From assembly GCA_965249555.1 (NCBI GenBank), contig OZ252243.1, forward strand, positions 1,536,001-1,600,000: a stretch of 64,000 bases of DNA, read 5' to 3'. Source of the DNA: Nitrosopumilus sp. Its GTDB lineage: Archaea > Thermoproteota > Nitrososphaeria > Nitrososphaerales > Nitrosopumilaceae. The notes under the pieces are model-generated. The model ran no database searches, was not told the origin of the DNA, and was given only the letters and a program-made list of their open reading frames with translations. Both the position numbers and the translations under genes were made by a program. Every line of letters begins with the position of its first letter. Positions within the stretch are counted from its first letter, which is position 1. Shown here in pieces: positions 19,895 to 48,631 of this stretch.

Positions 19895-20656
19895 AGAATG
19901 ATTCCATTCTTTCATCAAATCGTACTATAGTATTTGCAGCATCTATCATTGCGTTACGTAACCATGCAGAACCCCTCTTTGTTATTCCGCCTCCCCTGTG
20001 CACATCTGCGCTGTCCCTGTGCGATGGTGCAAGTCCTGCATATGAGACCAGTTTTTCTGCTGTTGCAAATCTGCTGTTGCAAATCTGCTGTTGCAAATCT
20101 GCTGATGTCAACTATCTCTGAAATTATTGTCAATGCCGTGACATAGTTTATTCCAGGAATGGTCACTAGTCTTGTTTTCCCATCCTCATTGCTGCCATCT
20201 TTGTCTCAATTGTGCTGATCTGTTTTTGCGGCATATCTATGGTGTCAAGATATGCATCCATTGCCATTCTGTCAACCTCACTCAGATTAATTTCATGCAA
20301 CCATCGTACTCCTTTCTGCGAGAATGTCTTTGTGGGTGTAATCATATTTTGCAAGTATTGCATAAATCATGTTTTTGTGTCTTGAGACACTTTGCACGCG
20401 ATTCAGTCTGGTTCTTACCAGACTGTATAGTCTATATGGTATTTTTCTGGTACAAATGATTCATACACCATGTCTGCTCTTAGCAAGTCTGCCAATACGT
20501 CTGAATCAAGTTTGTCGTTTTTTAGCTTTGCCTGTGCAATTATCTTACTTCTTTCTGGATTCCCGTTTTATTGTTGCAACACATTTTATTTTGTGAACAT
20601 CAATTCCTATACTGATAACTATATGTGAATACAAAAAGAAGTAATTCAGATAGCAT
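19885..20656 (-). pseudogene. IS110-family transposase (type 1), N-terminal and middle part with element left end; frameshifted and deleted
   Basis: IGIDVHK, KNDKLDSDVLA, TIPGI and YAGLAPS...GITKRGS motifs in several frames; left end AT-GCTATC-TGAATT at 20656-20643. Confidence 0.9.
20057..20104 (+). repeat. 14-bp unit triplicated, frameshifting the transposase
   Basis: (CTGCTGTTGCAAAT)x3 followed by CTGCTG. Confidence 0.95.
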
Positions 20657-20810
20657 AGGAAATGAACCCAAGTCCAGGAGTCGTAATCCATCATCCCCAT
20701 GGAAAATTTGCATCTCAGTATTGTGTAACAGGCACGAATTTCAATTCATAGAAGATCCGTATTTCTGTATCCCCTATAAATTTACAGAACCTTATTTGAG
20801 AATCAAAAAA

Positions 20811-22214
20811 CTATTTCCAAATTGTAACAATAGTTGATTTTTCCACGTTATTTCCCTTGCTATCAAATCCTTTGGCAGATATTTTGTAAAGACCTTCAGA
20901 GGCGGCATCGCCGTCATTTTTTATTTGATTCCATGAAAATTCTACCTTCTCTCCAGGTTCCAGATGGGACTCTGCCTGCATACTCATAGGCCTATATATG
21001 ACTATTCCAGACAGGTCAGTGATCATAAGACCATGCGATGAACTAGAAAAAGTCAGCAGAGTGGTTCCAGAATTTGCAATTTGAATTTTTATCTTCTCAT
21101 TTTGCTTAAAAACAGATTTTTCAGTAACTATAGAAATTGAAGAGCCCTCGACAAAAATTTGAGCGGGGACATCACCATCACTTGGAATTGACGGGGTGAC
21201 CTTATGATGAGGCATTATATGGGAATTCGCATAATCTACATAAGGGACAAATTGTTCATCTGGTTCCAAATCTTCAAGCTCTCTAGCTTGGGCCCTACTT
21301 GGCTCAAATTCAGACAAAGTAACAATGCCGTCATCAATGGATGTGTATACCCTAGCAGCATTATCAGCGTATGGTTGTAGTGTAGTCGCATGTACTGTAA
21401 AAGATCCAGAATCATATTTGAGATAATCAAGATTTTCTCTATCATGTATATCTGAGGCAAGATATATGACAGGTTCGTTGATAGTCATTTGGAAAGTTGT
21501 TGGGTTGCCATCAAAAGTCAATCCAGTCAAGTTGTGAGAATAGACCTCAAATGGCGGATAATAATGCTCAAGGATTGTCTTTCCATAGTAAGACAGATCA
21601 GTACCAGAAAGATCGTAATTTGCATGAGATTTAATAGAGTATATCTCCCAATCAGCAATATAACAGAATGTATCCCATAATTCTCGGGCATTGTCAAACT
21701 CTGTTCTATATGTTTCATTATAATCATCTAGTTGTTGCTGTGTCAGTTCAAATGAGGATGTTACAGTAACATCAAAAGTCTGACCAATTTGAACCCTGTC
21801 AGGTACCTGTAATGATATGGAACTTGGCAAGACGCATATCGGTATGGGATTTCCAGCGCCATATAGTTCTCCAACACCAGCTGTGGAATTATCAAATGTG
21901 TCTAGTGAGTTTGATTGTATAGTTATTGTTTTAGATTCCATACCATTTGATTTTAAATCAGACGCATTACTGACTGTCTCAACTTTGACAAATCCCATGT
22001 CTGATAATTTTTCAACAGAACCTTCATTTACACAAGCTGGAGTGTTTCGTGGCGATTCCATCAATACTTTATCATCACTGCATTGGATTTCATCTATTGG
22101 TATTCCCGAACTGTATTGTTTGAATGGTGATAAGATTTTTGTCTCTGCAAGTGCAGGCATTATGCCTATTACGACTGTTATGACTAACAGTCCAAGCAGG
22201 GTCATTTTAATCAT
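20811..22214 (-). CDS. Secreted multidomain protein (signal peptide, SPxKQ...EIQC module, unknown middle, C-terminal Ig/BsuPI-like domain)
   Basis: Probable start ATG 22214 (MIKMTLLGLLVITVVIGIMPALA) with TTAATA about 27 nt upstream; the track start 22289 lies inside the IS end. Confidence 0.8.
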   Translation of the reverse strand: MIKMTLLGLLVITVVIGIMPALAETKILSPFKQYSSGIPIDEIQCSDDKVLMESPRNTPACVNEGSVEKLSDMGFVKVETVSNASDLKSNGMESKTITIQSNSLDTFDNSTAGVGELYGAGNPIPICVLPSSISLQVPDRVQIGQTFDVTVTSSFELTQQQLDDYNETYRTEFDNARELWDTFCYIADWEIYSIKSHANYDLSGTDLSYYGKTILEHYYPPFEVYSHNLTGLTFDGNPTTFQMTINEPVIYLASDIHDRENLDYLKYDSGSFTVHATTLQPYADNAARVYTSIDDGIVTLSEFEPSRAQARELEDLEPDEQFVPYVDYANSHIMPHHKVTPSIPSDGDVPAQIFVEGSSISIVTEKSVFKQNEKIKIQIANSGTTLLTFSSSSHGLMITDLSGIVIYRPMSMQAESHLEPGEKVEFSWNQIKNDGDAASEGLYKISAKGFDSKGNNVEKSTIVTIWK

Positions 22215-22283
22215 CAATCCGTTTGGCAAATCATTTCTATTAAGTAGTATCCAGCTTGGTTGATGGAAATGTTTCAAAGTTTG

Positions 22284-22931
22284 ATCCATGTGAATTGTTT
22301 TTATACATTTCCTACTTTTTTGCGTCCCGAGGCATAGCCTTCGCTAGGACATATTCGCAGTTATCAACCGAGGCTTGTCCCTCAACATATAAAACGCGAC
22401 TTGCAGTCCTAACTGTAATTCTGTACAAATTCTCTTCTCTCTTTTAGCATCCAGTAAATCACTCGCAGGATATTTGATGATGCAGCAACTATATCTTTTG
22501 ATGAGCCTCTCTTCTTTTTAATGCGATTGTAAAATTTTGTAATGTCACTGTTCTTGGCATGTATTGTATGAGAATGAACGCATTGGATAAGGATCCATCG
22601 TACCGTCATGCTTCCCCTTTTGGTTATACGGTCATGGTGTAACCGTGTCTGCAGAATTTCTAACTGATGGCACGACTCCGACATATGCGCATAACCTGTG
22701 AGAGTCATTGAATCTCCCATACGAAATCGTCTCCAACCCTACTGAGGATACTTACTAGCATGCTTTGCTGAATCAGGACATCTCAGATATGCCTTGCATC
22801 TTATACTTTCGCTGTGTCAGTTCATGATTTTGTGTATAATACACTTTCAGAGTTAGCATGTGCCCGGATTGTTGCAAGCATCCTGTCTTGCAGCTGCCAC
22901 CTTTGTTTTCTCCTCTTTGCAATTCTGAAAT
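22284..22931 (-). mobile_element. IS110/IS1111 remnant copy A (type-1 C-terminus, type-2 C-terminus, ncRNA region, right end)
   Basis: FRIAKRR..VAAARQ fragment, then GRFND...RITKRGS...KERREFVQNYS*, then a tail ending AATTCACATGG-AT. Confidence 0.88.
22310..22411 (-). ncRNA. Bridge/seek-RNA-like region, copy A (donor loop deleted)
   Basis: Colinear with copies B and C except for a deletion between TCCT and AGCGAAGG; ends approximate. Confidence 0.55.
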
Positions 22932-23728: not shown

Positions 23729-23797
23729 ACTACACAAAAGTTCTAATGCTTTTTGTATTTTTGGTTGAATTTTGCCCACATACCATTTAGGGTTGGC

Positions 23798-24361: not shown

Positions 24362-24470
24362 AGATTAGTTTTCATTGTAATAGATAAAATTCCTTGTGTA
24401 TTGTGATGTACTGGAATTTGACATAATCAAAAACCCTATCAGTTATATGTTTACAATGCCAATTATCCTC

Positions 24471-26516: not shown

Positions 26517-26643
26517 TGGTCCCGTGGGGCGGAATTGAACCACCGACAACCCGGTTTCTGTATGCCTGATATGCTGCTATTTGGTCAGCCATCTAAAGCC
26601 AACAACTACAGCCGGAAGCTCTACCAGGCTGAGCTACCACGGG
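26517..26643 (-). tRNA. tRNA-Tyr(GTA) with a 50-nt intron at 37/38 (26556-26605) and encoded CCA
   Basis: C1-G72 acceptor CCCGTGG/CCACGGG-A-CCA; TCCGG-CT-GTA-G[intron]A-CCGGG. Confidence 0.95.
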
Positions 26644-28028: not shown

Positions 28029-28395
28029 ATCCATGTGAATTGTTTTTATACATTTCCCACTTTTTTGCATCCCAAGGCATAGCCTTCGCTATGGAATGCT
28101 TTCAAACAAAAGATGACGGACATGTATCCATACGAGGTCTGTTCCTCAATGCTATCTTCATCCCTTTGTCAGGATTATTCGCAGTTATTACCCGAGGCTT
28201 GTCCCTCAACATCTAACACGCGACTTGCAGTCCTAACTGTAATTCTGTACAAATTCTCTCCTCTCTTTTAGCATCCAGTAAATCACTCGCAGGATCTTTG
28301 ATGATGTGGCAACTGCGGCCTTTGATGAACCTCTCTTCTTTTTAATGCGATTGTAAAATTTTGTAATGTCACTGTTCTTGGCATGTATTGTATGA
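28029..28395 (-). mobile_element. IS110/IS1111 remnant copy B (type-2 C-terminus, ncRNA region, right end)
   Basis: KNSDITKFYNRIKKKRGSSKAAVA...QNYS* followed by the shared tail ending AATTCACATGG-AT. Confidence 0.88.
28050..28235 (-). ncRNA. Bridge/seek-RNA-like region, copy B
   Basis: Two internal-loop domains, each capped by a GAGG-N6-CCTC hairpin; ends approximate. Confidence 0.65.
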
Positions 28396-28776
28396 TTCCA
28401 TTCAACTGTTGTATGCAATTAAGATATTTTCAGGTTTGTGTTATTAATGATTTTGACATATTATACATATGGAACCACTATCAGTAATCATGAAACAGCG
28501 TGATGATACTTTTTGCTGGAACAATGTTTGCTTTAATTGTTCTACACTGTACATCAGGGAGATGAAGATACAACAGGGATTGTAATTTGTTTGATCTGTT
28601 AAAGTATGTGTTAGGGGCAGAATACCCAATCACCTAATTCAAAATGCCTCAAAGTAAAGATTCTGAACAGACACAAATTGTATAGTTTTGGTGATCTGTA
28701 TGCAGAAAAGTTCATGCATAAAACTCATAGACTCATACCTCCATATCACAATACAATGACTGAACTCTTTTCAAAG

Positions 28777-28808: not shown

Positions 28809-28871
28809 ATGAACAAAGTATTATTCTCTGCGTTAATGGGTGGAGTGGGCTTGGCCTCATTTGTCATATAA
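28809..28871 (+). other. 20-codon leader ORF (MNKVLFSALMGGVGLASFVI*), out of frame with giant gene 1
   Basis: Read directly; conserved upstream of giant gene 2. Confidence 0.75.
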
Positions 28872-28878
28872 CTCACCC

Positions 28879-31800
28879 TTGCAGGCAATTATCAGGTACC
28901 CATTTCTCTGCCTCGTATTTGCGGCACTATTTGCCATATCACTGGTCCTTGGGAGTGCCGAGGCCACCCAAGTCACCATCACACCGCTAACTTATGTAGA
29001 TGGTCAGACGGCAATTGAGCCAGGCTCTTTTAACATTATAGTGGATGACAGCCTTCGTCTAACTACGACCTTTGTTCCGCGGCAAGCCGGTGATTGGAGG
29101 ATTACGTCTGATGGTTTTGATCCTCTTGATGGCAGTGTTACTCAATCTGAGGTAAATAATAATGCACGTTTAGGGGATTTTAACAGACAACTGAGTATTG
29201 GTTTTGAGGACGATATCGTTCTTTTCTTCAAACCCAGTGGGGCTAGTGAATTTGCAAAAGTTGCAAGTGGAAACGTGGGGATTGTTCCTGATCTACCTGT
29301 ACTCAGGGTGGTAGGTGTCACTCCGACGTCTATAACGCTTGAATGGGATGATGTGGATGGTGCCCGTGGATACCATTTATTCATAAATGCAGTCGCACAT
29401 ATTACCACTGATCCATCAATCACTTTTGATGAATTAGATCCTGGAACAGAGTACTCTATTGCTGCCATAACAACAACAATTGGTAGTAACGCTATTAGTG
29501 CCAGATCTGCTCCGTTGGATGTAACCACATTGGCTGTAACTCCCTTGTCTGCAACAATAACTTATGCAGATGACCAGACGGCACTTGCCGAAAACATTTT
29601 TGCCGTTATACTGCCTTCCCCGGGAAATGCGGTAAATGTGTGGATTTCACCGCTAGAGAAGGGCACACTTAGATTTGAATCTAGTAATATTGGGAAGAAT
29701 GTCCCGGTTGCTTCAGGTGTGGATCAGACTGTTGCAAGGCCGCTGCCTCATGGTGATGATAATATTGTCATTTCATCAAGCGGTACAGAAGTTGCAAGGA
29801 TATCTATAACGACTGAGCTGGATCCTGATGAACCAGTTTATGCAGAAGAGCAGACGGCAATCCGGGAAGGCTCTTTACGTTATGAGCCGGTTGTAGATGG
29901 TAGCAGCATAAGTGTGAACTTTGTGCCAACAGACGCCGGCAACTTTGTATTTAGATATGGTGACTCTACTTCCACCTCTATTATTAATAAGTTGGGTGCA
30001 GAAGTAACAGTCGGCCTCCCCGTAGGTCATGATTATGATGATGACGTTATCATTGAATTCGGCGGCGTAGAAGCTGTAAGGATGCATGTAACGACCCCGT
30101 CTGAAGACGGTGTATCAATCCAAGCAGGCTCGTTTGTGGTTGTTGATACGATAAATGCAGACGCATTACGCGTAGAATTTGTACCGTTAAAGGAAGGCAC
30201 ATTTACGGTTACGGCAGGTGATACAAGTGAGACAGTTGACGTCTCAGCTGGGGATGTATCGGAATCAACACCAAAAGGGACTGAAATAACAGTCGGGTAT
30301 GAATTTGATGATAATGTCATCCTTTCATTTGGAGGCAAGGATGCTGCAAGGATACATGTGACGACCGGACCCACACCACTCGTACCTTCAGCGCCATCGC
30401 TTAGAATTACAGGTACCACTCATGACACTGTAACGCTCTCATGGGATGCAGTACATCGTGCCGACACCTACACCCTGACCCGAACCCTTGGAAGCAACCC
30501 TGCTGTAACGGTGCTATCTGGAATCGCTGACCTGACTTTTACTGATAAGAACCTGGCTGCCGAAACCGATTACACGTATTCCCTTACGGCGATAAATTCT
30601 GTCGGGCCAAGCGAACCTTCCGAGGATACTGTAACCACTGATGCTGCCCCAACTCCACCCGATACCCCGACACTTGTAGCGGGAGTAACCACCCATAATA
30701 CCGTCAGCCTCTCATGGGACGAACCGACCGGGGCCGACAGCTACATACTGACCAGGACTGCCGGCACGGTGATAATTGAGATACCGGTAACTGGGGGAAC
30801 GCACACTGACGATGCTTTGAAATCTGGAGTACAATACACCTATTCCATAAGGGCAGTGTCTGCAATTGGAGCCAGTCCAGATTCTAATGATGTCATCGTA
30901 ACCACGATTCCAGTACCCATAACACCTACCACGCCAACTTACACGGACGGCCAGACTGCAATCGATGAATCCTTTGGCATTATCCTGCTTGGCGATGGCA
31001 CGGCAGGGGTATTCTTTGATGCCACCGATGACGGAAAATATCATGTCGGGTGGGGAGCAGAGACTAGTACCCCTATTACTTACGAGGATGGCTACAGTGC
31101 ATATGTCGTGATTCCTATTGGCGACTATGCCGGCGTTGTCATCTTGTTCTTTGACGATAACGAGGTTGCAAGGCAAGTGGTACCTGCCGTGATAAGCCCG
31201 ATCAAAGACGGTACCCTGTCAGTCACTGATGATGCAGACGGGATCATAACCGTATCACTTACGCCGGCATTTGCCGGCACGTTTTCTGTCAGCACCAATT
31301 CCCTAGAGTCTGAAAAAATTCCCGGCGTACCTGATACCCAGATAGATATTACCCTGGATGTCGGACATGGCTTTGCCGAGGATGTCCTTGTCTCATTCAA
31401 TAATATTATAGTTGCAGGGATATTTGTAACGACCGTCCCTGATGCCCCGGCGCTTGTTCTGGGGCCCGTCACCAGCACCAGCATCACCCTCTCATGGAAT
31501 TCGGTGGATAATGCCGATAGATACACCCTGACCAGAACCGCTGATGGCACTGATGTAATAATAGTATCAGGCAACGTATTGACTTTCACTGATGAGGGTC
31601 TTGCTGCCGGAACCAATTACGTGTATGCCATTACGGCGACAACTCCTGAGGGCAGAACAGGCGCTATATCTGCAGAGCTTGCAGTTGATATTGGCTCTGC
31701 TGCAGAATCCTTTGGCGTCATAGTGGACGGTGATGGTGCATCCGTATCCTTTACACCGCTAGTACCTGGCGATTTCACGATTGGATACGGCGATGATTCA

Positions 31801-37800: not shown

Positions 37801-40800
37801 TCTGCCACTGATACTGGCTTGTCTGCTGCAACTGATTACAAGTATGTCATTACGGCAACAAATTCTGATGGGACAAGTGATCCTTCTGCAGAGTTTGATG
37901 CAAGGACTGGTGATTCTCCAACATACACCATCGACCATACTCTTCATATTGACGGAGATAAAGTAGTTATAACCTTCACATCGTCACACACCGATGATTT
38001 TACAATTGAATTTGATGGTGGTCGTACCATTGGCTTTAGAATTGATGATGCAGCCGTCCCATACATTCACACAGAAACAGTCGGGTATGATTATGATGGC
38101 AATGTTAGTATTTTCCTTGGCCTTGACGAAGTTGCAAAGTTACCTGTAACTACTGGGTCTGAACCAACTGTAACAGCTGTAAGAAATGCTGATAATTCCG
38201 TTACAGTATCCTGGAGTAATATAGAAACTAGTATCACCAATGAATATGTTCTTACTATTAGTGACGGTAGTAGTGATTCTGATACTTTCACTCCATCTGG
38301 AGCATCAAATCAACATACTATCAGTACTACTCGTACCATCGATCTAAACGATGCTAATGAAGTTTGTGTAAAGGGTGTTGGTGTAGATAATAAAATATGT
38401 GAACCTGTACCTGAAGCATTTGATATAACAGCACCAGTAATCACAGTAACAGGATCTGATACAACAATAGAGTTAACTGCAACTGACACCTACACTATAC
38501 CTGGCGCTACTGTAGCTGATAATGACCCAAATTACTCTGAAACAGTAGCAGTTACAGGTGATACACCTGACACCAGTAGTATAGGAGTCTACACCGTATT
38601 GTATGATGCGCCAAATGATGCGGCAGGTAACAAACCAGAACAAGAATCAATTACAATTACCGTAGTTGATACCACACCGCCAACCTTTGATGTCAATGGC
38701 AACACAGATGACTATTCCACTGCAGTACCATTTGGCGAAACATACACACCAGGTGCAATTGCCAATGCATTTGATATCTCAGGAATTGTATCTAGTGACG
38801 TTGGCGGTGACACAGTAAATGTCAACACTTCTAGAGACTATGTTGTAACTTATACTGTAACTGACAGCAATGGACGAACCACAACAATCACTGAAACTGT
38901 AACAGTAGGACCTGATGTTACAGCACCAGCAGTTCCTGAAATCACCACCTCACCTGCAACTGTCAATACACCATCATTCACGATTGATGGTACGGCTGAG
39001 GCCGGGACAACTGTAGCACTATTCAATGGAGGAACATCAGTTGATACCGTAATTGCTGATTCAGGTAGTTTCTCATTTACAGTTACACTGACTGAGGGTG
39101 AGAACTCATTCACTGTAACAGCGTCTGATGGACCAAACACATCTGACGCATCACCAGCTATAGTCATTACACTTGATACTATACCACCGGAAGCTCCTAT
39201 AATCACCACACCACCTGCAACTGTCAATACACCATCATTCACGATTGAAGGTACGGCTGAGGCCGGGACAACTGTAGCACTATTCAATGGAGTGACACCA
39301 GCTGGTACGACAACTGCCGATGGTTCAGGGAATTTCTCATTTACAGTTACACTGACTGATGGTGAGAACGCATTCACTGCAACAGCATCTGATGGACCAA
39401 ACACATCTGACGCATCACCAGCTATAGTCATTACACTTGATACCATACCACCGGAAGCTCCTGAAATTACCACCTCACCTGCAACTGTCAATACACCATC
39501 ATTCACGATTGAAGGTACGGCTGAAGCCGGGACAACTGTAGAACTGCTCAAGGGAGGAACATCAACTGGTGATACAGTAGCTGCTGATGGTGACGGGAAT
39601 TTCTCATTTACAGTTACACTGACTGATGGTGAGAACTCATTCACTGCAACGGCGTCTGATGGACCAAACACATCTGCTGCATCACCAGCTATAGTCATTA
39701 CACTTGATACCATACCACCGGAAGCTCCTGAAATTACCACCTCACCTGCAACTGTCAATACATCATCATTCACGATTGAAGGTACGGCTGAAGCCGGGAC
39801 AACTGTAGCACTGCTTAAGGGAGCAACATCAACTGGTGATACAGTAACTGCTGATTCGGGATCTTTCTCATTTACAGTTACACTGACTGATGGTGAGAAC
39901 TCATTCACTGCAACGGCGTCTGATGGACCAAACACATCTGCATCATCATCACCTGTACTCATTACGCTTGATACCACAGCACCAGCAGTTCCTGCAATTA
40001 CCACACCACCTGCAACTGTCAATACACCATCAATCACGATTGATGGTACGGCTGAAGCTGGGTCAACTGTGGAACTGTTCCGTGGAGTAACAACAGTTGA
40101 TACAGTAACTGCTGATTCGGGATCTTTCTCATTTACAGTTACACTGACTGATGGTGAGAACTCATTCACTGCAACGGCGTCTGATGGACCAAACACATCT
40201 GACGCATCATCACCTGTACTCATTACACTTGATACCATAGCACCAGCAGTTCCTGAAATTACCACCTCACCTGCAACTGTCAATACATCATCATTCACGA
40301 TTGATGGTACGGCTGAAGCTGGGTCAACTGTGGAACTGTTCCGTGGAGTAACATCTGTTGATACAGTAACTGCTGATTCGGGATCTTTCTCATTTACAGT
40401 TACACTGACTGATGGTGAGAACTCATTCACTGCAACGGCGTCTGATGGACCAAACACATCTGACGCATCATCACCTGTACTCATTACACTTGATACCATA
40501 CCACCGGAAGCTCCTGAAATTACCACCTCACCTGCAACTGTCAATACACCATCATTCACGATTGATGGTACGGCTGAGGCCGGGACAACTGTAGCACTGC
40601 TCAAGGGAGCAACATCAACTGGTGATACAGTAGCTGCTGATTCGGGATCTTTCTCATTTACAGTTACACTGACTGATGGTGAGAACTCATTCACTGCAAC
40701 GGCGTCTGATGGACCAAACACATCTGACGCATCATCACCTGTACTCATTACACTTGATACCATAGCACCAGCAGTTCCTGAAATTACCACCTCACCTGCA

Positions 40801-43800
40801 ACTGTCAATACATCATCATTCACGATTGAAGGTACGGCTGAAGCCGGGACAACTGTAGCACTGCTTAAGGGAGCAACATCAACTGGTGATACAGTAACTG
40901 CTGATTCAGGATCTTTCTCATTTACAGTTACACTGACTAAGGGTGCCAACTCATTCACTGTAACAGCGTCTGATGGACCAAACACATCTGCATCATCATC
41001 ACCTGTACTCATTACGCTTGATACCACAGCACCAGCAGTTCCTGCAATTACCACACCACCTGCAACTGTCAATACACCATCAATCACGATTGATGGTACG
41101 GCTGAAGCTGGGTCAACTGTGGAACTGTTCCGTGGAGTAACAACAGTTGATACAGTAACTGCTGATTCGGGATCTTTCTCATTTACAGTTACACTGACTG
41201 ATGGTGAGAACTCATTCACTGCAACGGCGTCTGATGGACCAAACACATCTGCTGCATCACCAGCTATAGTCATTACACTTGATACCATACCACCGGAAGC
41301 TCCTGAAATTACCACCTCACCTGCAACTGTCAATACACCATCATTCACGATTGAAGGTACGGCTGAGGCCGGGACAACTGTAGCACTGCTCAAGGGAGCA
41401 ACATCAACTGGTGATACAGTAACTGCTGATTCGGGATCTTTCTCATTTACAGTTACACTGACTAAGGGTGCCAACTCATTCACTGTAACAGCGTCTGATG
41501 GACCAAACACATCTGCATCATCATCACCTGTACTCATTACGCTTGATACCACAGCACCAGCAGTTCCTGCAATTACCACACCACCTGCAACTGTCAATAC
41601 ACCATCAATCACGATTGATGGTACGGCTGAAGCTGGGTCAACTGTGGAACTGTTCCGTGGAGTAACATCTGTTGATACAGTAACTGCTGATTCGGGATCT
41701 TTCTCATTTACAGTTACACTGACTGATGGTGAGAACTCATTCACTGCAACGGCGTCTGATGGACCAAACACATCTGCTGCATCACCAGCTATAGTCATTA
41801 CACTTGATACCATACCACCGGAAGCTCCTGAAATTACCACCTCACCTGCAACTGTCAATACACCATCAATCACGATTGATGGTACGGCTGAAGCTGGGTC
41901 AACTGTGGAACTGTTCCGTGGAGTAACATCTGTTGATACAGTAACTGCTGATTCGGGATCTTTCTCATTTACAGTTACACTGACTGATGGTGAGAACTCA
42001 TTCACTGCAACGGCGTCTGATGGACCAAACACATCTGACGCATCATCACCTGTACTCATTACACTTGATACCATAGCACCAGCAGTTCCTGAAATTACCA
42101 CCTCACCTGCAACTGTCAATACATCATCATTCACGATTGAAGGTACGGCTGAAGCCGGGACAACTGTAGCACTGCTTAAGGGAGCAACATCAACTGGTGA
42201 TACAGTAACTGCTGATTCAGGATCTTTCTCATTTACAGTTACACTGACTAAGGGTGCCAACTCATTCACTGTAACAGCGTCTGATGGACCAAACACATCT
42301 GCATCATCATCACCTGTACTCATTACGCTTGATACCACAGCACCAGCAGTTCCTGCAATTACCACACCACCTGCAACTGTCAATACACCATCATTCACGA
42401 TTGATGGTACGGCTGAAGCTGGGTCAACTGTGGAACTGTTCCGTGGAGTAACAACAGTTGATACAGTAACTGCTGATTCGGGATCTTTCTCATTTACAGT
42501 TACACTGACTGATGGTGAGAACTCATTCACTGCAACGGCGTCTGATGGACCAAACACATCTGCTGCATCACCAGCTATAGTCATTACACTTGATACCATA
42601 CCACCGGAAGCTCCTGAAATTACCACCTCACCTGCAACTGTCAATACACCATCATTCACGATTGAAGGTACGGCTGAGGCCGGGACAACTGTAGCACTGC
42701 TCAAGGGAGCAACATCAACTGGTGATACAGTAACTGCTGATTCGGGATCTTTCTCATTTACAGTTACACTGACTAAGGGTGCCAACTCATTCACTGTAAC
42801 AGCGTCTGATGGACCAAACACATCTGCATCATCATCACCTGTACTCATTACGCTTGATACCACAGCACCAGCAGTTCCTGCAATTACCACACCACCTGCA
42901 ACTGTCAATACACCATCAATCACGATTGATGGTACGGCTGAAGCTGGGTCAACTGTGGAACTGTTCCGTGGAGTAACATCTGTTGATACAGTAACTGCTG
43001 ATTCGGGATCTTTCTCATTTACAGTTACACTGACTGATGGTGAGAACTCATTCACTGCAACGGCGTCTGATGGACCAAACACATCTGCTGCATCACCAGC
43101 TATAGTCATTACACTTGATACCATACCACCGGAAGCTCCTGAAATTACCACCTCACCTGCAACTGTCAATACACCATCATTCACGATTGAAGGTACGGCT
43201 GAAGCCGGGACAACTGTAGCACTGCTTAAGGGAGCAACATCAACTGGTGATACAGTAGCTGCTGATGGTGACGGGAATTTCTCATTTACAGTTACACTGA
43301 CTAAGGGTGCCAACTCATTCACTGTAACAGCGTCTGATGGACCAAACACATCTGCATCATCATCACCTGTACTCATTACGCTTGATACCACAGCACCAGC
43401 AGTTCCTGCAATTACCACACCACCTGCAACTGTCAATACACCATCAATCACGATTGATGGTACGGCTGAGGCCGGGACAACTGTGGAACTGCTCAAGGGA
43501 GGAACATCAACTGGTGATACAGTAGCTGCTGATGGTGACGGGAATTTCTCATTTACAGTTACACTGACTGATGGTGAGAACTCATTCACTGCAACGGCGT
43601 CTGATGGACCAAACACATCTGCTGCATCACCAGCTATAGTCATTACACTTGATACCATACCACCGGAAGCTCCTGAAATTACCACCTCACCTGCAACTGT
43701 CAATACATCATCATTCACGATTGAAGGTACGGCTGAAGCCGGGACAACTGTAGCACTGCTTAAGGGAGCAACATCAACTGGTGATACAGTAACTGCTGAT

Positions 43801-46800
43801 TCGGGATCTTTCTCATTTACAGTTACACTGACTGATGGTGAGAACTCATTCACTGCAACGGCGTCTGATGGACCAAACACATCTGCTGCATCATCACCTG
43901 TACTCATTACACTTGATACCATAGCACCAGCAGCTCCTGAAATTACCACCTCACCTGCAACTGTCAATACACCATCATTCACGATTGAAGGTACGGCTGA
44001 AGCCGGGACAACTGTAGAACTGCTCAAGGGAGGAACATCAACTGGTGATACAGTAACTGCTGATTCGGGATCTTTCTCATTTACAGTTACACTGACTAAG
44101 GGTGCCAACTCATTCACTGTAACAGCGTCTGATGGACCAAACACATCTGCATCATCATCACCTGTACTCATTACGCTTGATACCACAGCACCAGCAGTTC
44201 CTGAAATTACCACCTCACCTGCAACTGTCAATACACCATCAATCACGATTGATGGTACGGCTGAAGCTGGGTCAACTGTGGAACTGTTCCGTGGAGTAAC
44301 ATCTGTTGATACAGTAACTGCTGATTCGGGATCTTTCTCATTTACAGTTACACTGACTGATGGTGAGAACTCATTCACTGCAACGGCGTCTGATGGACCA
44401 AACACATCTGACGCATCATCACCTGTACTCATTACACTTGATACCATAGCACCAGCAGTTCCTGAAATTACCACCTCACCTGCAACTGTCAATACATCAT
44501 CATTCACGATTGAAGGTACGGCTGAAGCCGGGACAACTGTAGCACTGCTTAAGGGAGCAACATCAACTGGTGATACAGTAACTGCTGATTCAGGATCTTT
44601 CTCATTTACAGTTACACTGACTAAGGGTGCCAACTCATTCACTGTAACAGCGTCTGATGGACCAAACACATCTGCATCATCATCACCTGTACTCATTACG
44701 CTTGATACCACAGCACCAGCAGTTCCTGCAATTACCACACCACCTGCAACTGTCAATACACCATCAATCACGATTGATGGTACGGCTGAAGCTGGGTCAA
44801 CTGTGGAACTGTTCCGTGGAGTAACAACAGTTGATACAGTAACTGCTGATTCGGGATCTTTCTCATTTACAGTTACACTGACTGATGGTGAGAACTCATT
44901 CACTGCAACGGCGTCTGATGGACCAAACACATCTGCTGCATCACCAGCTATAGTCATTACACTTGATACCATACCACCGGAAGCTCCTGAAATTACCACC
45001 TCACCTGCAACTGTCAATACACCATCATTCACGATTGAAGGTACGGCTGAGGCCGGGACAACTGTAGCACTGCTCAAGGGAGCAACATCAACTGGTGATA
45101 CAGTAGCTGCTGATGGTGACGGGAATTTCTCATTTACAGTTACACTGACTGATGGTGAGAACTCGTTTACTGCAACGGCGTCTGATGGACCAAACACATC
45201 TGACGCATCACCAGCTATAGTCATTACACTTGATATCATAGCACCAGTAATCACAGTTGATAAAGATTCATTCTCCGTTGAACTTGGAGAAACATACACA
45301 GCATTCACCTATTCTGCAAATGATAACACTGACGGGGATATCACAGATAATGTAGTTGTTGGAGATACAGTTGATACCAGTGTAGATAATACTTACAATG
45401 TAACCTTTGATGTGGATGATGCGGCTGGAAACCATGCAGTAACAGTAACCAGGACAGTCACAGTTACACCTGATGCCACGGTGCCAACCATCACAGTCAA
45501 TGAGGATTCGCTCTCCGTCGAGCTTGGAGGAACGTACGAGCTATTCACCTTTACTGCAAATGATAATACTGACGGGATTATCACCGGTGAGGTAGCTGTT
45601 GCTGGATATCCAGCTGATACCGATACGATTGGAACCTATGATGTTACCTTTGATGTGGATGATGCGGCCGGAAACCATGCAGTAACAGTAACTAGAACAG
45701 TTACAGTTACAGCTGATACCACAGCACCATCTATCACAGTCAATGAGGAATCATTCTCCGTTGAACTTGGAGAAACATACACGCCATTCACCTTTACTGC
45801 AACTGATAATATTGATGGGGATATCTCAAGTAAGGTAACTGTTGGTGGGGATACAGTTGATACCGGTACGATTGGAACATATGATGTTACCTTTGATGTA
45901 GTTGATGCAGCTGGAAACCCTGCAGTTACAGTAACTAGAACAGTTACAGTTACAGATCCCGAAGCACCAACTCTACCTGATACAGAAAAACCAGTTATCA
46001 CACCAGCAGGATCTAGTGAAACAATTGAGTTAATTGCAACCAACACTTACACAGAACAAGGCGCTACTGTAGAAGATAATGACCTAGCCTACTCTGAAAC
46101 AGTAACAGTCTCTGGTGATACACCTGACACCAGTAGTATAGGAGAATACACCGTATTGTATGATGCACCAGATGATGCGGCAAATAACACACCAGACCAA
46201 AAATCAATTACAATTACCGTAGTTGATACCACAGCACCAACCTTTGATGTTGATGGTAACACAGGTGACTATTCCACTACAGTACCATTTGGCGAAACAT
46301 ACACCCCAGGTGTAATTGCCAATGCATTTGATATCTCAGGAACTGCACCTGGTATAGTTGGCGGTGAAACAGTCAATGTCGACACTTCTAGAGAATATGT
46401 TGTAACTTATACCGTAACTGACAACAATGGACAAGTCGCAACAATCACTGAAACTGTAACAGTAGAATCTGATATCACAGCACCAGCAGTTCCTGCAATT
46501 ACCACACCATCTGCAACTGTTGGCTCAACACCAATCACAATTGTTGGTACAGCTGAAATTGGGTCAACTGTGGAACTGTTCCGTGGAGGAACATCAGTTG
46601 ATACGACAACTGCCGATGGTTCAGGGAATTTCTCATTTACAGAAGTTGCACTAGATGAAGGTGAGAACTCTTTTACTGCAACGGCATCTGATGGAGTCAA
46701 CACATCTGCTGCATCACCATCTATAGTCATTACACTTGATACAACACCAGCTGGTGGCATCGCTAGTGTAACTCCTGGAACTGAAACACCAAAGAAAAAA

Positions 46801-47811
46801 GGTGGAGATTCTAATGAATGGAAAACAAAGCCAACCTTTGGCAAACATTGGAATAATCAAGCAGTACAGCTAGTTGATGACGGCTTTGTCTTTAATGGCA
46901 TGCCATTAACCATTACAAACAACTGGCACACTGACTTTAATATGACTAGCAGCATTATTGGTGAGGACAATACAGTCCACATCAAAGGCTATGCAACAAA
47001 TGACCTAAAGTCGGTATCCCTATCCCTTGGAGTTCCAGAAGTTGGCCTGAAAACTAATGCAGAGTCCCACATTATAGTGAATGTAAATAGCAACTATACC
47101 AGTCCTGCAGGCTATGACATTGCAGATATAGTCCATGAGCAAAGAGAGGGACTGGTAAATCAGAACATGACTGGTGCAACAATTAGTAAAGTCAAATGTA
47201 CCATATCAGATACTACAGAGAGGTGCTTTGATGTTACCATATCATTTGTAATAATGGCACCATTATCCCATGAAGTAATGGCAATTAATGCAGTTGACAA
47301 ACAACGTTATTCTACTACCACATATATCAACGAAGGTGTAGAGTTTACAGGAGAAGCATTACTTGCAGCAGCAACTCATGAGTTAAAACAAAAGCATGGC
47401 AACCAGAATCCGTTTGAGACCATATCACTGACACAGCAAGACAGACGTTACCAGGTCTGGGAGGACCAATATGGATACATATGGTCACAAAATGACTATG
47501 GCACCTGGTTGCAGATTACAAGACCTGATATACAACAAAGAGATGATTCGCCAACAAGCGTAATGACTAGAATTCATTCAAACTTTGCAAATCTGGTAAT
47601 TGATGAGCAGGATAGGGCAACTCTGATCTTTGATAGTAAGGCAATTCAGGGAACCTTGGATGAATCATTCTCATATGATATGCCATTAAGACTGGACAGG
47701 GTATCAGATCCCGCATTGCTGGAATCACTATCCATACAAGAGATGCTGGCCCAGGAGATGCTGTGTGACTGTATTATATATGATGACTCTGATTTTAGCT
47801 GGAACGACTAG
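28879..47811 (+). CDS. Giant secreted/surface protein 1 (about 6,310 aa; FN3, Ig-like Big- and DUF5011-type repeats, distinct C-terminal domain)
   Basis: Uninterrupted ORF; signal peptide ending SAEA; FN3 motifs (TLSW...Y...L.A.T.Y.Y); start uncertain (TTG 28879, GTG 28840, or fusion to ATG 28809). Confidence 0.93.
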   Translation: MQAIIRYPFLCLVFAALFAISLVLGSAEATQVTITPLTYVDGQTAIEPGSFNIIVDDSLRLTTTFVPRQAGDWRITSDGFDPLDGSVTQSEVNNNARLGDFNRQLSIGFEDDIVLFFKPSGASEFAKVASGNVGIVPDLPVLRVVGVTPTSITLEWDDVDGARGYHLFINAVAHITTDPSITFDELDPGTEYSIAAITTTIGSNAISARSAPLDVTTLAVTPLSATITYADDQTALAENIFAVILPSPGNAVNVWISPLEKGTLRFESSNIGKNVPVASGVDQTVARPLPHGDDNIVISSSGTEVARISITTELDPDEPVYAEEQTAIREGSLRYEPVVDGSSISVNFVPTDAGNFVFRYGDSTSTSIINKLGAEVTVGLPVGHDYDDDVIIEFGGVEAVRMHVTTPSEDGVSIQAGSFVVVDTINADALRVEFVPLKEGTFTVTAGDTSETVDVSAGDVSESTPKGTEITVGYEFDDNVILSFGGKDAARIHVTTGPTPLVPSAPSLRITGTTHDTVTLSWDAVHRADTYTLTRTLGSNPAVTVLSGIADLTFTDKNLAAETDYTYSLTAINSVGPSEPSEDTVTTDAAPTPPDTPTLVAGVTTHNTVSLSWDEPTGADSYILTRTAGTVIIEIPVTGGTHTDDALKSGVQYTYSIRAVSAIGASPDSNDVIVTTIPVPITPTTPTYTDGQTAIDESFGIILLGDGTAGVFFDATDDGKYHVGWGAETSTPITYEDGYSAYVVIPIGDYAGVVILFFDDNEVARQVVPAVISPIKDGTLSVTDDADGIITVSLTPAFAGTFSVSTNSLESEKIPGVPDTQIDITLDVGHGFAEDVLVSFNNIIVAGIFVTTVPDAPALVLGPVTSTSITLSWNSVDNADRYTLTRTADGTDVIIVSGNVLTFTDEGLAAGTNYVYAITATTPEGRTGAISAELAVDIGSAAESFGVIVDGDGASVSFTPLVPGDFTIGYGDDSANDVTISVATGKLSAKLTTIKVGYNFNGPVTLSLDNDIIGRILIVTEPPPTTLDATAVTDTSITLAWPPQPEVQEYRLYRNGALVVATGELSYTDTGLDSNTAYTYHIESHNDVSTTSDRSADLDVTTLIEPPRLVAGEITTTSVELTWDAVAGANDYVLYRDGVNIALVTGTTHKVTGLAAGTEYSFTAESRHLNFLTSPLSSPLSVRTVPDTPALRVTGTTFDTITLSWSPVNGAASYTLTRVVEGDDVTVFSGDALTATDENLSPATSYNYIITATTSGGTSAPSAEFAASTASAVPIITTSSQIVNTPSITIAGTAESGKTVELFQGETSAGTTTADGTGAFSFEVTLADGANSFTATASDGTDTSVPSSPIVITLDTEKPLITVLGSDETIELTAADTYAEPGATVEDNDPAYSEDVTVAGNTPDTSVIRVYTVTYNAPADAAGNEPDQQSITITVSDTTPPTFDVDGHTTNYATTVPFAGTYTQGIIANESDISGIASGTVGGKSVNVHVSAEYAVTYTVTDNNGQAATITETVTVGDDEEKPVITPLGSSETIIVSETDTYTEPDATVKDNDPAYSEDVTVAGDTPDTSVVGEYTVLYTAPADAAGNIPDEKSIVISIVDPPTSPPATIRTLSVSSTTHDSITLSWDAVATAASYTVTRIVDGGPDVEVASEITELTATDENLAADTTYKYTIKAINSAGASTSLEFSLNTAAIPAAPAAPVLSVTSTTDTTVSFSWGAVEGADSYTLTRVVADGSDVPVPTTPELTATDENLAPETSYNYIITATNAGGTTPSATFEATTSAPPAPATPVFSTVVSATHNSINLSWSAVAGADSYTLTRVAESGNNVRVFSGDALTFTNAGLDPDTAYNYIIMATNSAGTSEPSDQFTATTSTAPPTLVIHDTPTLVAGIITYNTVNLSWDEPAGADSYILTRTAGTDTTEIPVIGGTHADDTLEPTTQYTYSVKAVSASGDSADSNDVIATTIPVPILPTTPTYAVDQSAIVGTSFEIIRIDDDTITVSFDAINDGEYYVQWGESETSPTTITGGNSASVQIPIDDYAGVVILFFEDNEVARQQVPAVTSPIKDGTLSVTDDADGIITVSLTPAFAGTFSVGTHSLDSEKIPGVPDTTIVITLDVGHGFAEDVLVSFNNIIVAKVFVTTVPETPALVLGAVTGTSIALSWGSVDNADSYTLTRTADGTDVIIVSGNVLTFTDEGLAAGTNYVYAITATTPEGRTSATSADLAVTIGSAAQSFDVIADGDDASISFTPLVPGDFTIGYGDDSSNDITVTIASDEVDEPSTTPVTVGYNFNGPVTLSLDNDIIGRVLLVTEPPPTALDATAVTDTSIILAWPSQPEVQEYRLYRNGALVVATGELSYTDTGLAAETVYIYHIESHNDISTTSDQSANLIASTGSAAAPGTPAEIPAIESGSFGVTAGVDDATASFVPLRSGDFIIGYGTDQSVTVTIAGDALGKASTTTVPVGDGYDGPVTLTFDGEQVGTVPVRAGITNDTEKPVITPTGSTQTIELTAADTYTEPGATVKDNDPAYSEKVTVAGDTPDTSVIGEYTVLYNAPADAAGNEPDQQSIAITVSDTTPPAFDVDGHTTDYATTVPFAGTYTQGIIANESDISGIASSVVGGNSVDVNVPGQYAVTYTVTDGNEQVATITETVTVEPDAEKPVITPMGSTRTIELTATNTYAELGATVTDNDRDYSGTVTVTGDKPNTGAVGVYIVTYTAPADAAGNEPDPQSIVISVVDTPVPTGITYTEGQTAIEEGSLGYTLNDPGNTISVDFKPLKAGTYKFQYGVSFSNVQVSEAEIGENKRLLIHGIGYNYNADIVISLGSTEVASVSVATGPAPPVLSVGAVTDTSIAFSWGAVTGATHYNVYRDGIVQGRDIGVTSFADTGLTPGTEYAYHVIAFNGLAASASSNVESVTTTGTAPVTIPDTPTLSIVATTHNSIELSWTAVENADSYTLTRIVDGDDNVPVPTTDALSATDTGLSAATDYKYVITATNSDGTSDPSAEFDARTGDSPTYTIDHTLHIDGDKVVITFTSSHTDDFTIEFDGGRTIGFRIDDAAVPYIHTETVGYDYDGNVSIFLGLDEVAKLPVTTGSEPTVTAVRNADNSVTVSWSNIETSITNEYVLTISDGSSDSDTFTPSGASNQHTISTTRTIDLNDANEVCVKGVGVDNKICEPVPEAFDITAPVITVTGSDTTIELTATDTYTIPGATVADNDPNYSETVAVTGDTPDTSSIGVYTVLYDAPNDAAGNKPEQESITITVVDTTPPTFDVNGNTDDYSTAVPFGETYTPGAIANAFDISGIVSSDVGGDTVNVNTSRDYVVTYTVTDSNGRTTTITETVTVGPDVTAPAVPEITTSPATVNTPSFTIDGTAEAGTTVALFNGGTSVDTVIADSGSFSFTVTLTEGENSFTVTASDGPNTSDASPAIVITLDTIPPEAPIITTPPATVNTPSFTIEGTAEAGTTVALFNGVTPAGTTTADGSGNFSFTVTLTDGENAFTATASDGPNTSDASPAIVITLDTIPPEAPEITTSPATVNTPSFTIEGTAEAGTTVELLKGGTSTGDTVAADGDGNFSFTVTLTDGENSFTATASDGPNTSAASPAIVITLDTIPPEAPEITTSPATVNTSSFTIEGTAEAGTTVALLKGATSTGDTVTADSGSFSFTVTLTDGENSFTATASDGPNTSASSSPVLITLDTTAPAVPAITTPPATVNTPSITIDGTAEAGSTVELFRGVTTVDTVTADSGSFSFTVTLTDGENSFTATASDGPNTSDASSPVLITLDTIAPAVPEITTSPATVNTSSFTIDGTAEAGSTVELFRGVTSVDTVTADSGSFSFTVTLTDGENSFTATASDGPNTSDASSPVLITLDTIPPEAPEITTSPATVNTPSFTIDGTAEAGTTVALLKGATSTGDTVAADSGSFSFTVTLTDGENSFTATASDGPNTSDASSPVLITLDTIAPAVPEITTSPATVNTSSFTIEGTAEAGTTVALLKGATSTGDTVTADSGSFSFTVTLTKGANSFTVTASDGPNTSASSSPVLITLDTTAPAVPAITTPPATVNTPSITIDGTAEAGSTVELFRGVTTVDTVTADSGSFSFTVTLTDGENSFTATASDGPNTSAASPAIVITLDTIPPEAPEITTSPATVNTPSFTIEGTAEAGTTVALLKGATSTGDTVTADSGSFSFTVTLTKGANSFTVTASDGPNTSASSSPVLITLDTTAPAVPAITTPPATVNTPSITIDGTAEAGSTVELFRGVTSVDTVTADSGSFSFTVTLTDGENSFTATASDGPNTSAASPAIVITLDTIPPEAPEITTSPATVNTPSITIDGTAEAGSTVELFRGVTSVDTVTADSGSFSFTVTLTDGENSFTATASDGPNTSDASSPVLITLDTIAPAVPEITTSPATVNTSSFTIEGTAEAGTTVALLKGATSTGDTVTADSGSFSFTVTLTKGANSFTVTASDGPNTSASSSPVLITLDTTAPAVPAITTPPATVNTPSFTIDGTAEAGSTVELFRGVTTVDTVTADSGSFSFTVTLTDGENSFTATASDGPNTSAASPAIVITLDTIPPEAPEITTSPATVNTPSFTIEGTAEAGTTVALLKGATSTGDTVTADSGSFSFTVTLTKGANSFTVTASDGPNTSASSSPVLITLDTTAPAVPAITTPPATVNTPSITIDGTAEAGSTVELFRGVTSVDTVTADSGSFSFTVTLTDGENSFTATASDGPNTSAASPAIVITLDTIPPEAPEITTSPATVNTPSFTIEGTAEAGTTVALLKGATSTGDTVAADGDGNFSFTVTLTKGANSFTVTASDGPNTSASSSPVLITLDTTAPAVPAITTPPATVNTPSITIDGTAEAGTTVELLKGGTSTGDTVAADGDGNFSFTVTLTDGENSFTATASDGPNTSAASPAIVITLDTIPPEAPEITTSPATVNTSSFTIEGTAEAGTTVALLKGATSTGDTVTADSGSFSFTVTLTDGENSFTATASDGPNTSAASSPVLITLDTIAPAAPEITTSPATVNTPSFTIEGTAEAGTTVELLKGGTSTGDTVTADSGSFSFTVTLTKGANSFTVTASDGPNTSASSSPVLITLDTTAPAVPEITTSPATVNTPSITIDGTAEAGSTVELFRGVTSVDTVTADSGSFSFTVTLTDGENSFTATASDGPNTSDASSPVLITLDTIAPAVPEITTSPATVNTSSFTIEGTAEAGTTVALLKGATSTGDTVTADSGSFSFTVTLTKGANSFTVTASDGPNTSASSSPVLITLDTTAPAVPAITTPPATVNTPSITIDGTAEAGSTVELFRGVTTVDTVTADSGSFSFTVTLTDGENSFTATASDGPNTSAASPAIVITLDTIPPEAPEITTSPATVNTPSFTIEGTAEAGTTVALLKGATSTGDTVAADGDGNFSFTVTLTDGENSFTATASDGPNTSDASPAIVITLDIIAPVITVDKDSFSVELGETYTAFTYSANDNTDGDITDNVVVGDTVDTSVDNTYNVTFDVDDAAGNHAVTVTRTVTVTPDATVPTITVNEDSLSVELGGTYELFTFTANDNTDGIITGEVAVAGYPADTDTIGTYDVTFDVDDAAGNHAVTVTRTVTVTADTTAPSITVNEESFSVELGETYTPFTFTATDNIDGDISSKVTVGGDTVDTGTIGTYDVTFDVVDAAGNPAVTVTRTVTVTDPEAPTLPDTEKPVITPAGSSETIELIATNTYTEQGATVEDNDLAYSETVTVSGDTPDTSSIGEYTVLYDAPDDAANNTPDQKSITITVVDTTAPTFDVDGNTGDYSTTVPFGETYTPGVIANAFDISGTAPGIVGGETVNVDTSREYVVTYTVTDNNGQVATITETVTVESDITAPAVPAITTPSATVGSTPITIVGTAEIGSTVELFRGGTSVDTTTADGSGNFSFTEVALDEGENSFTATASDGVNTSAASPSIVITLDTTPAGGIASVTPGTETPKKKGGDSNEWKTKPTFGKHWNNQAVQLVDDGFVFNGMPLTITNNWHTDFNMTSSIIGEDNTVHIKGYATNDLKSVSLSLGVPEVGLKTNAESHIIVNVNSNYTSPAGYDIADIVHEQREGLVNQNMTGATISKVKCTISDTTERCFDVTISFVIMAPLSHEVMAINAVDKQRYSTTTYINEGVEFTGEALLAAATHELKQKHGNQNPFETISLTQQDRRYQVWEDQYGYIWSQNDYGTWLQITRPDIQQRDDSPTSVMTRIHSNFANLVIDEQDRATLIFDSKAIQGTLDESFSYDMPLRLDRVSDPALLESLSIQEMLAQEMLCDCIIYDDSDFSWND
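30660..36037 (+). repeat. Internal ~1.5-kb duplication in giant gene 1 (about 30660-32165 vs 34528-36037)
   Basis: DTPTLVAG...SPIKDGTLSVTDDADG...QPEVQEYRLYRNG occurs twice, with long identical DNA runs. Confidence 0.88.
38920..45240 (+). repeat. Tandem array of 24 Ig-like units of 261-267 bp
   Basis: GATGGACCAAACACATCT recurs 24 times from about 39127 to 45184 at 261, 264 or 267 bp spacing. Confidence 0.93.
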
Positions 47812-48041
47812 GTTCCGTCACATATTTGAGAATTATATGTAATTAGGTTATTGGGTATCTACTGCCCCTAGATTATCATGGAATATTTTACAAAAACAAT
47901 GGATGGATTTTGTATCATTTGCAAAAACAATCCCTGATGAATTATTAATACAATTCCTGGAATCAAAATATGCCAAGAATCCTTCCCGTACTTTTTGCAA
48001 AAATAAAACTCTCTGTACCAAAGGCAGAGACAAAATGAGAT

Positions 48042-48631
48042 GGCATATCTGAGATGTCCTGATTCAGCAAAACACACTAGGAGGTGTCCTCAGTAGGGTT
48101 GGAGACGATTTCGTATGGGAGATTCAATGACTCTCACAAGTTATGCGCATATGCAGGAGTCGTGCCATCAGTTAGAAACTCTGCAGACACGGTTACACCA
48201 TGGTCGTATAACCAAAAGGGGAAGCATGACACTACGATGGGTTCTTACCCAATGTGTCCATGCCCATGCACTACATGTCAAGAACAGTGACATTACAAAA
48301 TTTTACAATCGCATTAAAAAGAAGAGAGGTTCATCAAAAGATATAGTTGCTGCATCATCAAAGATCCTGCGAGTGATTTACTGGATGCTAAAAGAGAGGA
48401 GAGAATTTGTACAGAATTACAGTTAGGACTGCAAGTCGCGTAATGATTTTTGAGGAACAAGCCTCGTCAACTAACTGCGGATAGATCCTAACGAAGGGAT
48501 GAAGATAGCATTGAGGTTAAAGCCTCGTATGGATACATGTCCGTCATCTTTTGATTGAAAACCTTCTCTAGCGAAAGATATGCCTTGGGATGCCAAAAAG
48601 TGGGAAATGTATAAAAACAATTCACATGGAT
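48042..48631 (+). mobile_element. IS110/IS1111 remnant copy C
   Basis: Homologous to copy A from GGCATATCTGAGATG; frameshifted YAGVVPSVRNSA / GRITKRGS fragment; right end AATTCACATGG-AT at 48631. Confidence 0.9.
48424..48600 (+). ncRNA. Bridge/seek-RNA-like region, copy C
   Basis: Same two-domain scaffold as copy B; AGATAGCAT at 48503-48511 and ATGGAT at 48529-48534. Confidence 0.65.

Follow-up and report, generated by a model that had tools for sequence, protein, structure and literature searches.

In the portions of the literature drawn on here, the bridge RNAs of IS1111 elements lie in the right end of the element and are predicted in 93% of catalogued members (Durrant et al., PMC11208160), and the corresponding seekRNAs come from the downstream region, with the match to the top strand 5' of the match to the bottom strand (Siddiquee et al., PMC11187229). 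The latter account gives IS1111 transposases a length of 330-350 aa and describes sub-terminal repeats. For archaea, 662 IS110 recombinases are known (10.1101/2024.06.21.599552), and a 2026 preprint mines bridge RNAs in bacterial and archaeal intergenic space (10.64898/2026.10.21.760802). Here we analyse a 64,000-nucleotide stretch of DNA, referred to as the window, which corresponds to G000:C1:1536001-1600000 (genome G000, contig C1) in the 2.23-Mb, one-contig genome of a Nitrosopumilus sp., and report that it very probably carries decayed copies of an IS1111-type element of the IS110 family with a predicted bridge (seek) RNA. This element is, by prediction, an archaeal addition to the known RNA-guided IS110/IS1111 recombinases, and computationally a well-supported one.

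The likeness to the IS1111 seekRNA group (ISEc11, ISPa11 and ISKpn4, as covered by the cited parts of PMC11187229 and PMC11208160) extends to several features. The transposase combines DEDD with PF02371 and, at 331 aa, falls within the 330-350 aa of the group; the longer non-coding region lies downstream of the gene, and the sub-terminal repeats have short extensions beyond them. As in the seekRNAs of PMC11187229, the top-strand guide stands 5' of the bottom-strand guide, and the target is lineage-specific and often the end of another repeat, as it is across the group. In contrast to the group, the element is hosted by an ammonia-oxidising archaeon, it has G-V-V-P-x4-S-A where the cited part of PMC11187229 gives S/T-G and occasionally T-A, and it carries an outward-facing archaeal TATA-like box together with a left-end copy of one strand of the predicted donor loop.

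With IS621 and ISCro4 the element shares a two-loop RNA whose separate target and donor loops would each read both DNA strands, and its target-loop 3' strand runs into the first bases of the element, much as a handshake guide does. It departs from them in the position of the RNA, which is at the right end rather than the left, in the reversed guide order, in a right-target guide of up to 10 nt, and in a core of which T alone is shared instead of a fixed CT; no co-varying donor-loop handshake was seen. The nearest named transposase relatives are haloarchaeal IS110 elements, with 33-37% identity over the full length (32.9% for ISHvo9). ISHvo9 also has a downstream non-coding region and, by eye, sub-terminal repeats, GGTGAATT and AATTCACC, like the element described here. 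The covariance model of the predicted RNA (R1, below) finds no match in three haloarchaeal IS110 loci with filters off, so their RNAs differ beyond what the model recognises. In the literature searched, we found no description of this element family in ammonia-oxidising archaea; the supplements of PMC11208160 and PMC11187229, with their bridge-RNA predictions for individual IS elements, may list related archaeal elements.

Element boundaries and transposase

Searches with a 2.3-kb query around one copy revealed sharp limits of homology on both sides of the element. At the 21 left junctions of the genome the sequence is flank-T|A(A/G)CTATATGTGAATAC, with AT (17), TT (3) or CT (1) as the preceding dinucleotide, and at the 29 right junctions it is ...AATTCACATGGAT|flank. 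Because these junctions fix both ends, the element is 1335 bp long and its repeats are ATGTGAAT, 6 nt from the left end, and ATTCACAT, 4 nt from the right end, which are sub-terminal and inverted as in IS1111 elements (7-17 bp). The left end takes up 128 nt and the right end 207 nt, on either side of a recombinase gene for 331 aa, so that the non-coding region is longer downstream of the gene than upstream. In the genome the right-end region is present about 20 times in full and about 10 times in part; nine copies of the element are full length, and three of these have an open 331-aa transposase frame. An empty site and its filled counterpart can be compared directly, as the repeat end GTGCGTGAAGGTTGAT|ACATAC is present 42 times, 40 times unbroken and once split exactly at the bar by the element, where the filled site reads GGTTGAT|AAC.

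The intact 331-aa protein contains the two domains of the IS110 family (the N-terminal RuvC-like DEDD domain, Pfam PF01548, 5e-25, and the C-terminal PF02371, 6.5e-21) and scores 225 bits against the NCBIfam model NF033542, 'IS110 family RNA-guided transposase', for which the cut-off is 140. Its similarity to the structurally solved IS621 and ISCro4 transposases reaches only E ~1e-11, with the D, E, D, D and Ser columns lining up: GIDLHK, VMESSS, KTDKIDAK and NSA stand opposite GIDTAK, CIEATG, KTDTVDAR and ESG of IS621. We take these aligned IS621 columns to be the catalytic residues. In the C-terminal motif, G-V-V-P-S-V-R-N-S-A against GL-P----S(t)G of IS1111, the Ser is retained and Ala replaces Gly. 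A motif AAACAGATTA(G/C)(G/C) is conserved some 20-40 nt upstream of the transposase start in almost every lineage, a GC-rich one among them; in L001/L045, for example, it stands about 100 nt from the left end.

All three copies in the window are dead. Their transposase tails lie at 22412-22720 on the minus strand (copy A; weak PF02371 match, E 0.0046), 28236-28418 on the minus strand (copy B; too short for Pfam) and 48115-48423 on the plus strand (copy C; weak PF02371 match, E 0.001), and the tails together with the sequence after them are 91-94% identical at the nucleotide level to a single reference element elsewhere in the genome. The first-pass annotation of this DNA had recognised the three dead tails and had inferred two diverged transposase types, a division that dissolves once A, B and C are seen to be the same element, with A and C cut alike by the end of another repeat. 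By homology, copies A (22284-22715, minus strand) and C (48120-48631, plus strand) retain the 3' part of the element, beginning at reference position 1495, and copy B (28029-28394, minus strand) is cut at reference position 1639; all three extend to the right end. The end of this other repeat, Z (...GATTTCGTATGGGAG), adjoins the element at reference position 1495 in six copies, including A and C, where it occupies 22716-22793 (minus strand) and 48042-48119 (plus strand), and it is found in about 30 further places in the genome. The identical truncation of A and C is explained by this abutting Z end. The right terminus ...CACATGGAT ends at 48631 in copy C, at 28029 on the minus strand in copy B and at 22284 on the minus strand in copy A, where the final GGAT stops.

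The window also holds an orphan left-end fragment, the first 90 nt of the element, at 20617-20706 on the plus strand (homology to reference 675-766, with the boundary taken from the 21 left junctions), directly preceded by AT at 20615-20616. It was ruled out as the far end of copy A, which is on the other strand. The left sub-terminal inverted repeat ATGTGAAT is at 20623-20630 (plus strand) and is the reverse complement of ATTCACAT at right ends. A left terminus had earlier been proposed at 20648-20656; the junctions put the start at T|AAC, window position 20617, about 30 nt away, and replace the proposed sub-terminal repeats AATTCA/TGAATT by ATGTGAAT and ATTCACAT.

A predicted guide RNA in the right end

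The right end is predicted to encode a bridge (seek) RNA on the transposase strand, beginning directly after the stop codon. The predicted fold has two domains, each composed of a stem, an internal loop and a capped hairpin, followed by a third hairpin; the GAGG-N6-CCTC caps with variable loops that had been noticed before are present. We built the covariance model from 21 copies, 17 from this genome and four from relatives whose transposases are 84, 55, 51 and 40% identical, and it comprises 172 positions and 38 pairs. The conserved region of about 200 nt that follows each tail is matched at all three places in the window. Copies B and C retain a predicted RNA gene, at 28062-28232 on the minus strand (192.4 bits) and 48427-48598 on the plus strand (183.9 bits), and copy A has a remnant at 22317-22408 on the minus strand (68.4 bits) with domain 1 and part of the third hairpin, its domain 2 having been taken out by an internal 76-nt deletion, in line with what the earlier description of A had implied. 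Within the genus, 29 of 151 genomes contain matches, several of them with 11 to 18 or more copies.

Covariation was measured on 39 matches from 35 sources and compared with 500 shuffles. Paired cells amounted to 83.3%, compared with 75.7% after shuffling; changes on both sides occurred in 25 of the 38 pairs (16.5 +/- 1.6 in shuffles), and the covariation score was 0.244 against 0.136. None of the 500 shuffles reached any of these measures, a count that overstates the support, since the sequences are related to one another and had been aligned by fitting them to the model. When partners were slid, pairing fell to 35-50%. Pairing is 86-96% in the four stems around the two loops and only 57% in the long stem of the third hairpin. 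Frequent G-U pairs place the RNA on the transposase strand. A structured RNA with two internal loops and with stems backed by covariation, within the limit of the fitted alignment, is what a bridge RNA would be expected to show. Collecting the copies, modelling them and looking for covariation, the course that the first-pass annotation had suggested, thus came out positive, and its broader proposal of an RNA-guided IS1111-like element in an ammonia-oxidising archaeon is supported by the archaeal AmoA encoded in the genome, by the predicted RNA downstream of the transposase and by the sub-terminal repeats.

Domain 1 and the insertion site

Domain 1, which carries the strongest evidence, is predicted to bind the target. 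When reverse-complemented, its 5' strand gives the 7-10 nt on the right-hand side of the insertion point; the 3' strand repeats the 5-7 nt on the left-hand side and then continues with T and with AAC, the first three nucleotides of the element. In copy C the 5' strand is at 48441-48450, the cap at 48451-48466 and the 3' strand at 48467-48475 (plus strand); in copy B, as read from the model match, the two strands are at 28219-28228 and 28184-28192 (minus strand). The existence of separate target and donor loops had been foreseen, without recognition of domain 1 as the one for the target.

Within this genome, domain 1 shows ten different 5' strands and eight different 3' strands, and the strands of domain 2 are constant in 19-20 of 20 copies. 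Right flanks match the reverse complement of their own 5' strand at 127 of 200 positions, a level attained by 9 of 20000 permutations, and single copies match up to 10 of 10. When only positions +5..+10 of the 13 copies that share ACAT are considered, 111 of 20000 permutations do as well. Addition of 80 further copies from seven multi-copy genomes yielded 97 distinct insertions and 49 distinct guides. Across these, the right flank agreed with its own guide at six or more of seven positions in 57 of 97 insertions and at all seven in 31, against 2.8% and 0.15% for other guides (n = 8700; guides differing by >2 nt), where each score is the best of five offsets, as one fixed register did not fit all classes, and controls were scored alike. 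On the left, 29 of 53 distinct cases match at least four of five informative positions, compared with 1.5% for other guides. The loop strands are thus complementary to both strands of the target and co-vary with it, as in described bridge RNAs. In one relative the left end differs (TTTGT...) and the target-loop 3' strand differs to match, which is the only independent support for a handshake that extends into the element.

Several other repeats and lineages are connected with these target sequences. Repeat Y, which ends in ...TTGATTTGTGCGTGAAGGTTGATACATAC, occurs 42 times in the genome (e.g. C1:709332, 779380 and 1091014; none inside the window), and the main guide class preferentially targets its last 13 nt. 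Seven copies of the element with AGC in place of AAC at the left end (C1:2071119, 2210591, 94803, 1239984, 2194383, 1854327 and 1247674) are all preceded by the same 28 nt of an inverted Y end (GTATGTATCAACC...AAATCA-AT) and have unique outer flanks; they look like one rearranged unit that spread. A second lineage of the family is inserted in the left end of the first, between AACTAT and ATGTGAATAA (loci L049, L075, L076, L081 and L082 in genome G154, and L124, L125 and L132 in G153). Its guides are AAACTAT-AAC and ATGTGAAAA, and the outcome is tandem composites with differing outer flanks.

Domain 2 and the element ends

Domain 2 is, by prediction, the donor-binding loop. In copy C its 5' strand, cap and 3' strand are at 48503-48511, 48512-48527 and 48528-48543 (plus strand), and in copy B the model match gives 28149-28157 for the 5' strand and 28117-28132 for the 3' strand (minus strand). 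The 3' strand fits the right end closely: it contains the last six right-end bases in 35 of 38 loci and changes with them, the hexamer being ATGGAT in 25 of 26 loci of its class, ATAGAT in 8 of 8, AAGGTA in 1 of 1 and ATGGCA in 1 of 2, while hexamers of other classes are found at the right end of 0-1 loci. The correspondence between ATGGAT in this strand and the right terminus, pointed out earlier in the window, therefore extends to the family. The ACAT that follows ATGGAT was considered as a handshake guide for the right flank ACATAC and rejected, as the strand is kept where the flanks of relatives differ; this region forms a small conserved hairpin. Pairing of the donor 5' strand with GCYAT of the third hairpin was likewise set aside, that motif being constant across guide classes.

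The donor 5' strand fits less simply. We suggest that it would read the left terminus, pairing with the 5 nt by the left repeat and, in two classes, additionally with AT, with one base skipped. The nucleotides so complemented differ by class (GCTAT, ACCAT, ACCGT and TTTGT), and agreement is 5/5 in 9 of 21 and 4/5 in 11 of 21, compared with 15% and 40% for other classes. A far closer match is found inside the left end. The 9-nt AGATAGCAT of the donor 5' strand in copies C (48503-48511) and B (28149-28157, minus strand) is identical, 9 of 9 and in the same sense, to 20648-20656 (plus strand), an internal box at +32..+40 of the orphan left end. The last 7 nt of the strand recur 7/7 in the same sense at +31..+43 of the own left end in 20 of 29 distinct members (2.3% for other classes), and the box changes in step with the strand through five classes, ATAGCAT, ATGGTAC, ACGGTAC, ATGATAC and ATGGTAT. 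The 9/9 match noted earlier is therefore real, and the two sequences co-vary across the family, but the site is 32-40 nt in from the left end and not at the terminus, as had been assumed. The box, which often has a hairpin of its own behind it, makes an inverted repeat together with the left terminus and looks like a second half-site of the right-end type.

This co-variation gives some weight to a sub-terminal form of donor recognition, in which the donor 5' strand pairs with the bottom strand of the left-end box (+32..+43) instead of the left terminus. The box would then act as a second right-end half-site (AATTCA-GATAGCAT, compared with AATTCA-CATGGAT), and the left end would be recognised as a folded-back or looped structure, an arrangement close to the idea put forward initially. 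Such a reading would account for the same-sense 7/7 identity and for the five-class co-variation, which includes positions that have no partner in the terminus, and it sits well with the weaker terminus match and with the inverted repeat that terminus and box form. Against it, strand exchange would take place at T|AAC, 32 nt from the box, and the target 5' strand is antisense to the top strand, so that a same-sense donor 5' strand would break the symmetry of the loops. In the solved IS621 complexes, moreover, both donor guides reportedly adjoin the core. On balance we regard sub-terminal recognition as unlikely. We are equally doubtful that the left end holds a functional third guide-related site in the form of the same-sense copy of the donor 5' strand at +32..+43. 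If it did, whether the box were read by the donor loop or served as a competitor that masks the left terminus until joining, donor recognition or the choice between excision and insertion would be unlike that of IS621.

Junction core and right-end promoter

The reading we prefer remains that of a bridge RNA whose two loops address the target and the joined termini. In a complex of recombinase and RNA, these loops would base-pair with opposite strands both of the target and of an excised circle at its joined ends, for which we infer the sequence ...CACATGG-AT|AAC.... Strand exchange would occur at the T, by analogy with IS621, ISEc11 and relatives, where it has been shown experimentally. Across the family, AAC is preceded by T in all 53 cases, and the dinucleotide before the left end is CT in 16, GT in 15, AT in 13 and TT in 9; the target-loop 3' strand changes with the variable N of this NT. 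Among the right junctions of this genome, 29 of 29 are GG-AT.

These junctions bear on the donor model of the first-pass annotation as originally drawn, with a left terminus at 20643-20656, a circle junction AATTCA-CATGG-AT-GCTATC-TGAATT and a shared palindromic AT core. The 9/9 and ATGGAT matches on which it was founded are real. All 21 left junctions, however, extend to T|AAC, 32 nt further out, as does the filled site GGTTGAT|AAC; the proposed junction sets the right end against an internal left-end site taken in reverse complement, would require an inverted left end and is supported by no copy. The core is also not a common palindromic AT, with NT on the left, GG-AT on the right, only T in common and a dinucleotide other than AT in 40 of 53 cases. 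We consider the model in that form very improbable.

Under a strict pattern, 35 of 48 distinct right ends (22% when shuffled) have a purine-preceded TATA-like box that starts 20-22 nt from the terminus, and one further right end has it at 25 nt; by eye, a box is present in nearly all, and its fixed distance from the right end is conserved in relatives. In copy C the right end at 48610-48631 (plus strand), read from the sequence, consists of the outward-facing box TATAAAAA (48610-48617), the sub-terminal repeat ATTCACAT (48620-48627) and the terminal GG-AT (48628-48631). The BRE/TATA-like box, about 20 nt inside the right end, points outward and would drive the transposase and the RNA only after the ends have joined, that is, as a putative right-end promoter whose transcription would cross the joined ends and enter the transposase gene. 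Directly downstream of the right end of copy A is a 492-aa open reading frame (ORF) at 20811-22305 (minus strand), whose first listed ATG is the CAT of CACATGG inside copy A; the outward TATA-like box at 22298-22305 could drive this ORF.

Evidence against a bridge RNA

Besides the fitted alignment and the multiple offsets already mentioned, several observations weigh against the bridge-RNA interpretation. About 40% of insertions mismatch their own guide, including copies B and C of the window (4/7 each), and the left flank is good by eye in only two of the nine full-length copies of this genome (7/7 and 6/7). In the donor loop, the centre of the 5' strand is only weakly complementary to the 5 nt by the left repeat, far less so than it is identical to the internal box. 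A full core dinucleotide common to target and donor was not found, T alone being shared. Finally, Rfam at gathering thresholds matched no bridge-RNA family in the window and returned three tRNAs only.

A right end that serves as a DNA-level binding platform or as a structured 3' untranslated region, with flank preference arising from protein-DNA contacts, would be an alternative to a guide RNA, but it is scarcely credible when 49 domain-1 sequences follow 49 flank types under one and the same protein family, when the stems remain paired, on one strand only, by virtue of G-U pairs and double changes, and when homologous systems have been shown to be RNA-guided (cited parts of PMC11187229 and PMC11208160).

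Neighbouring features

Between copies B and C lies a 6323-aa ORF at 28840-47811 (plus strand), whose 3' end, together with the sequence downstream, recurs at about ten places in the genome. The three tRNA matches, at 26520-26643 (minus strand), 3986-4076 (minus strand) and 5903-6003 (plus strand), span 91-124 nt against a model of 71 positions, lengths consistent with intron-containing archaeal tRNAs.

Implications

RNA-guided IS110/IS1111 recombinases are under active development for genome writing, and the characterised ones are bacterial. The family described here offers a compact 331-aa recombinase from ammonia-oxidising archaea, along with a usable RNA model that finds the predicted RNA in 29 of the 151 genomes of the genus. 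Its 49 target guides with their insertion sites form a natural reprogramming series, which shows the free positions of the loop and the length of the guide (up to 10 nt on the right side). The differences from IS621, namely a T as the only shared core base, an outward TATA-like box and a duplicated donor-strand box in the left end, are directly testable. In the genus as a whole, about 50 natural re-targetings of a single scaffold can be counted, and one of the lineages concerned aims at the left end of a sister element. The element is also a major contributor to the plasticity of its host genome, with about 30 right ends in 2.2 Mb and copies placed in the ends of other repeats and beside genes.

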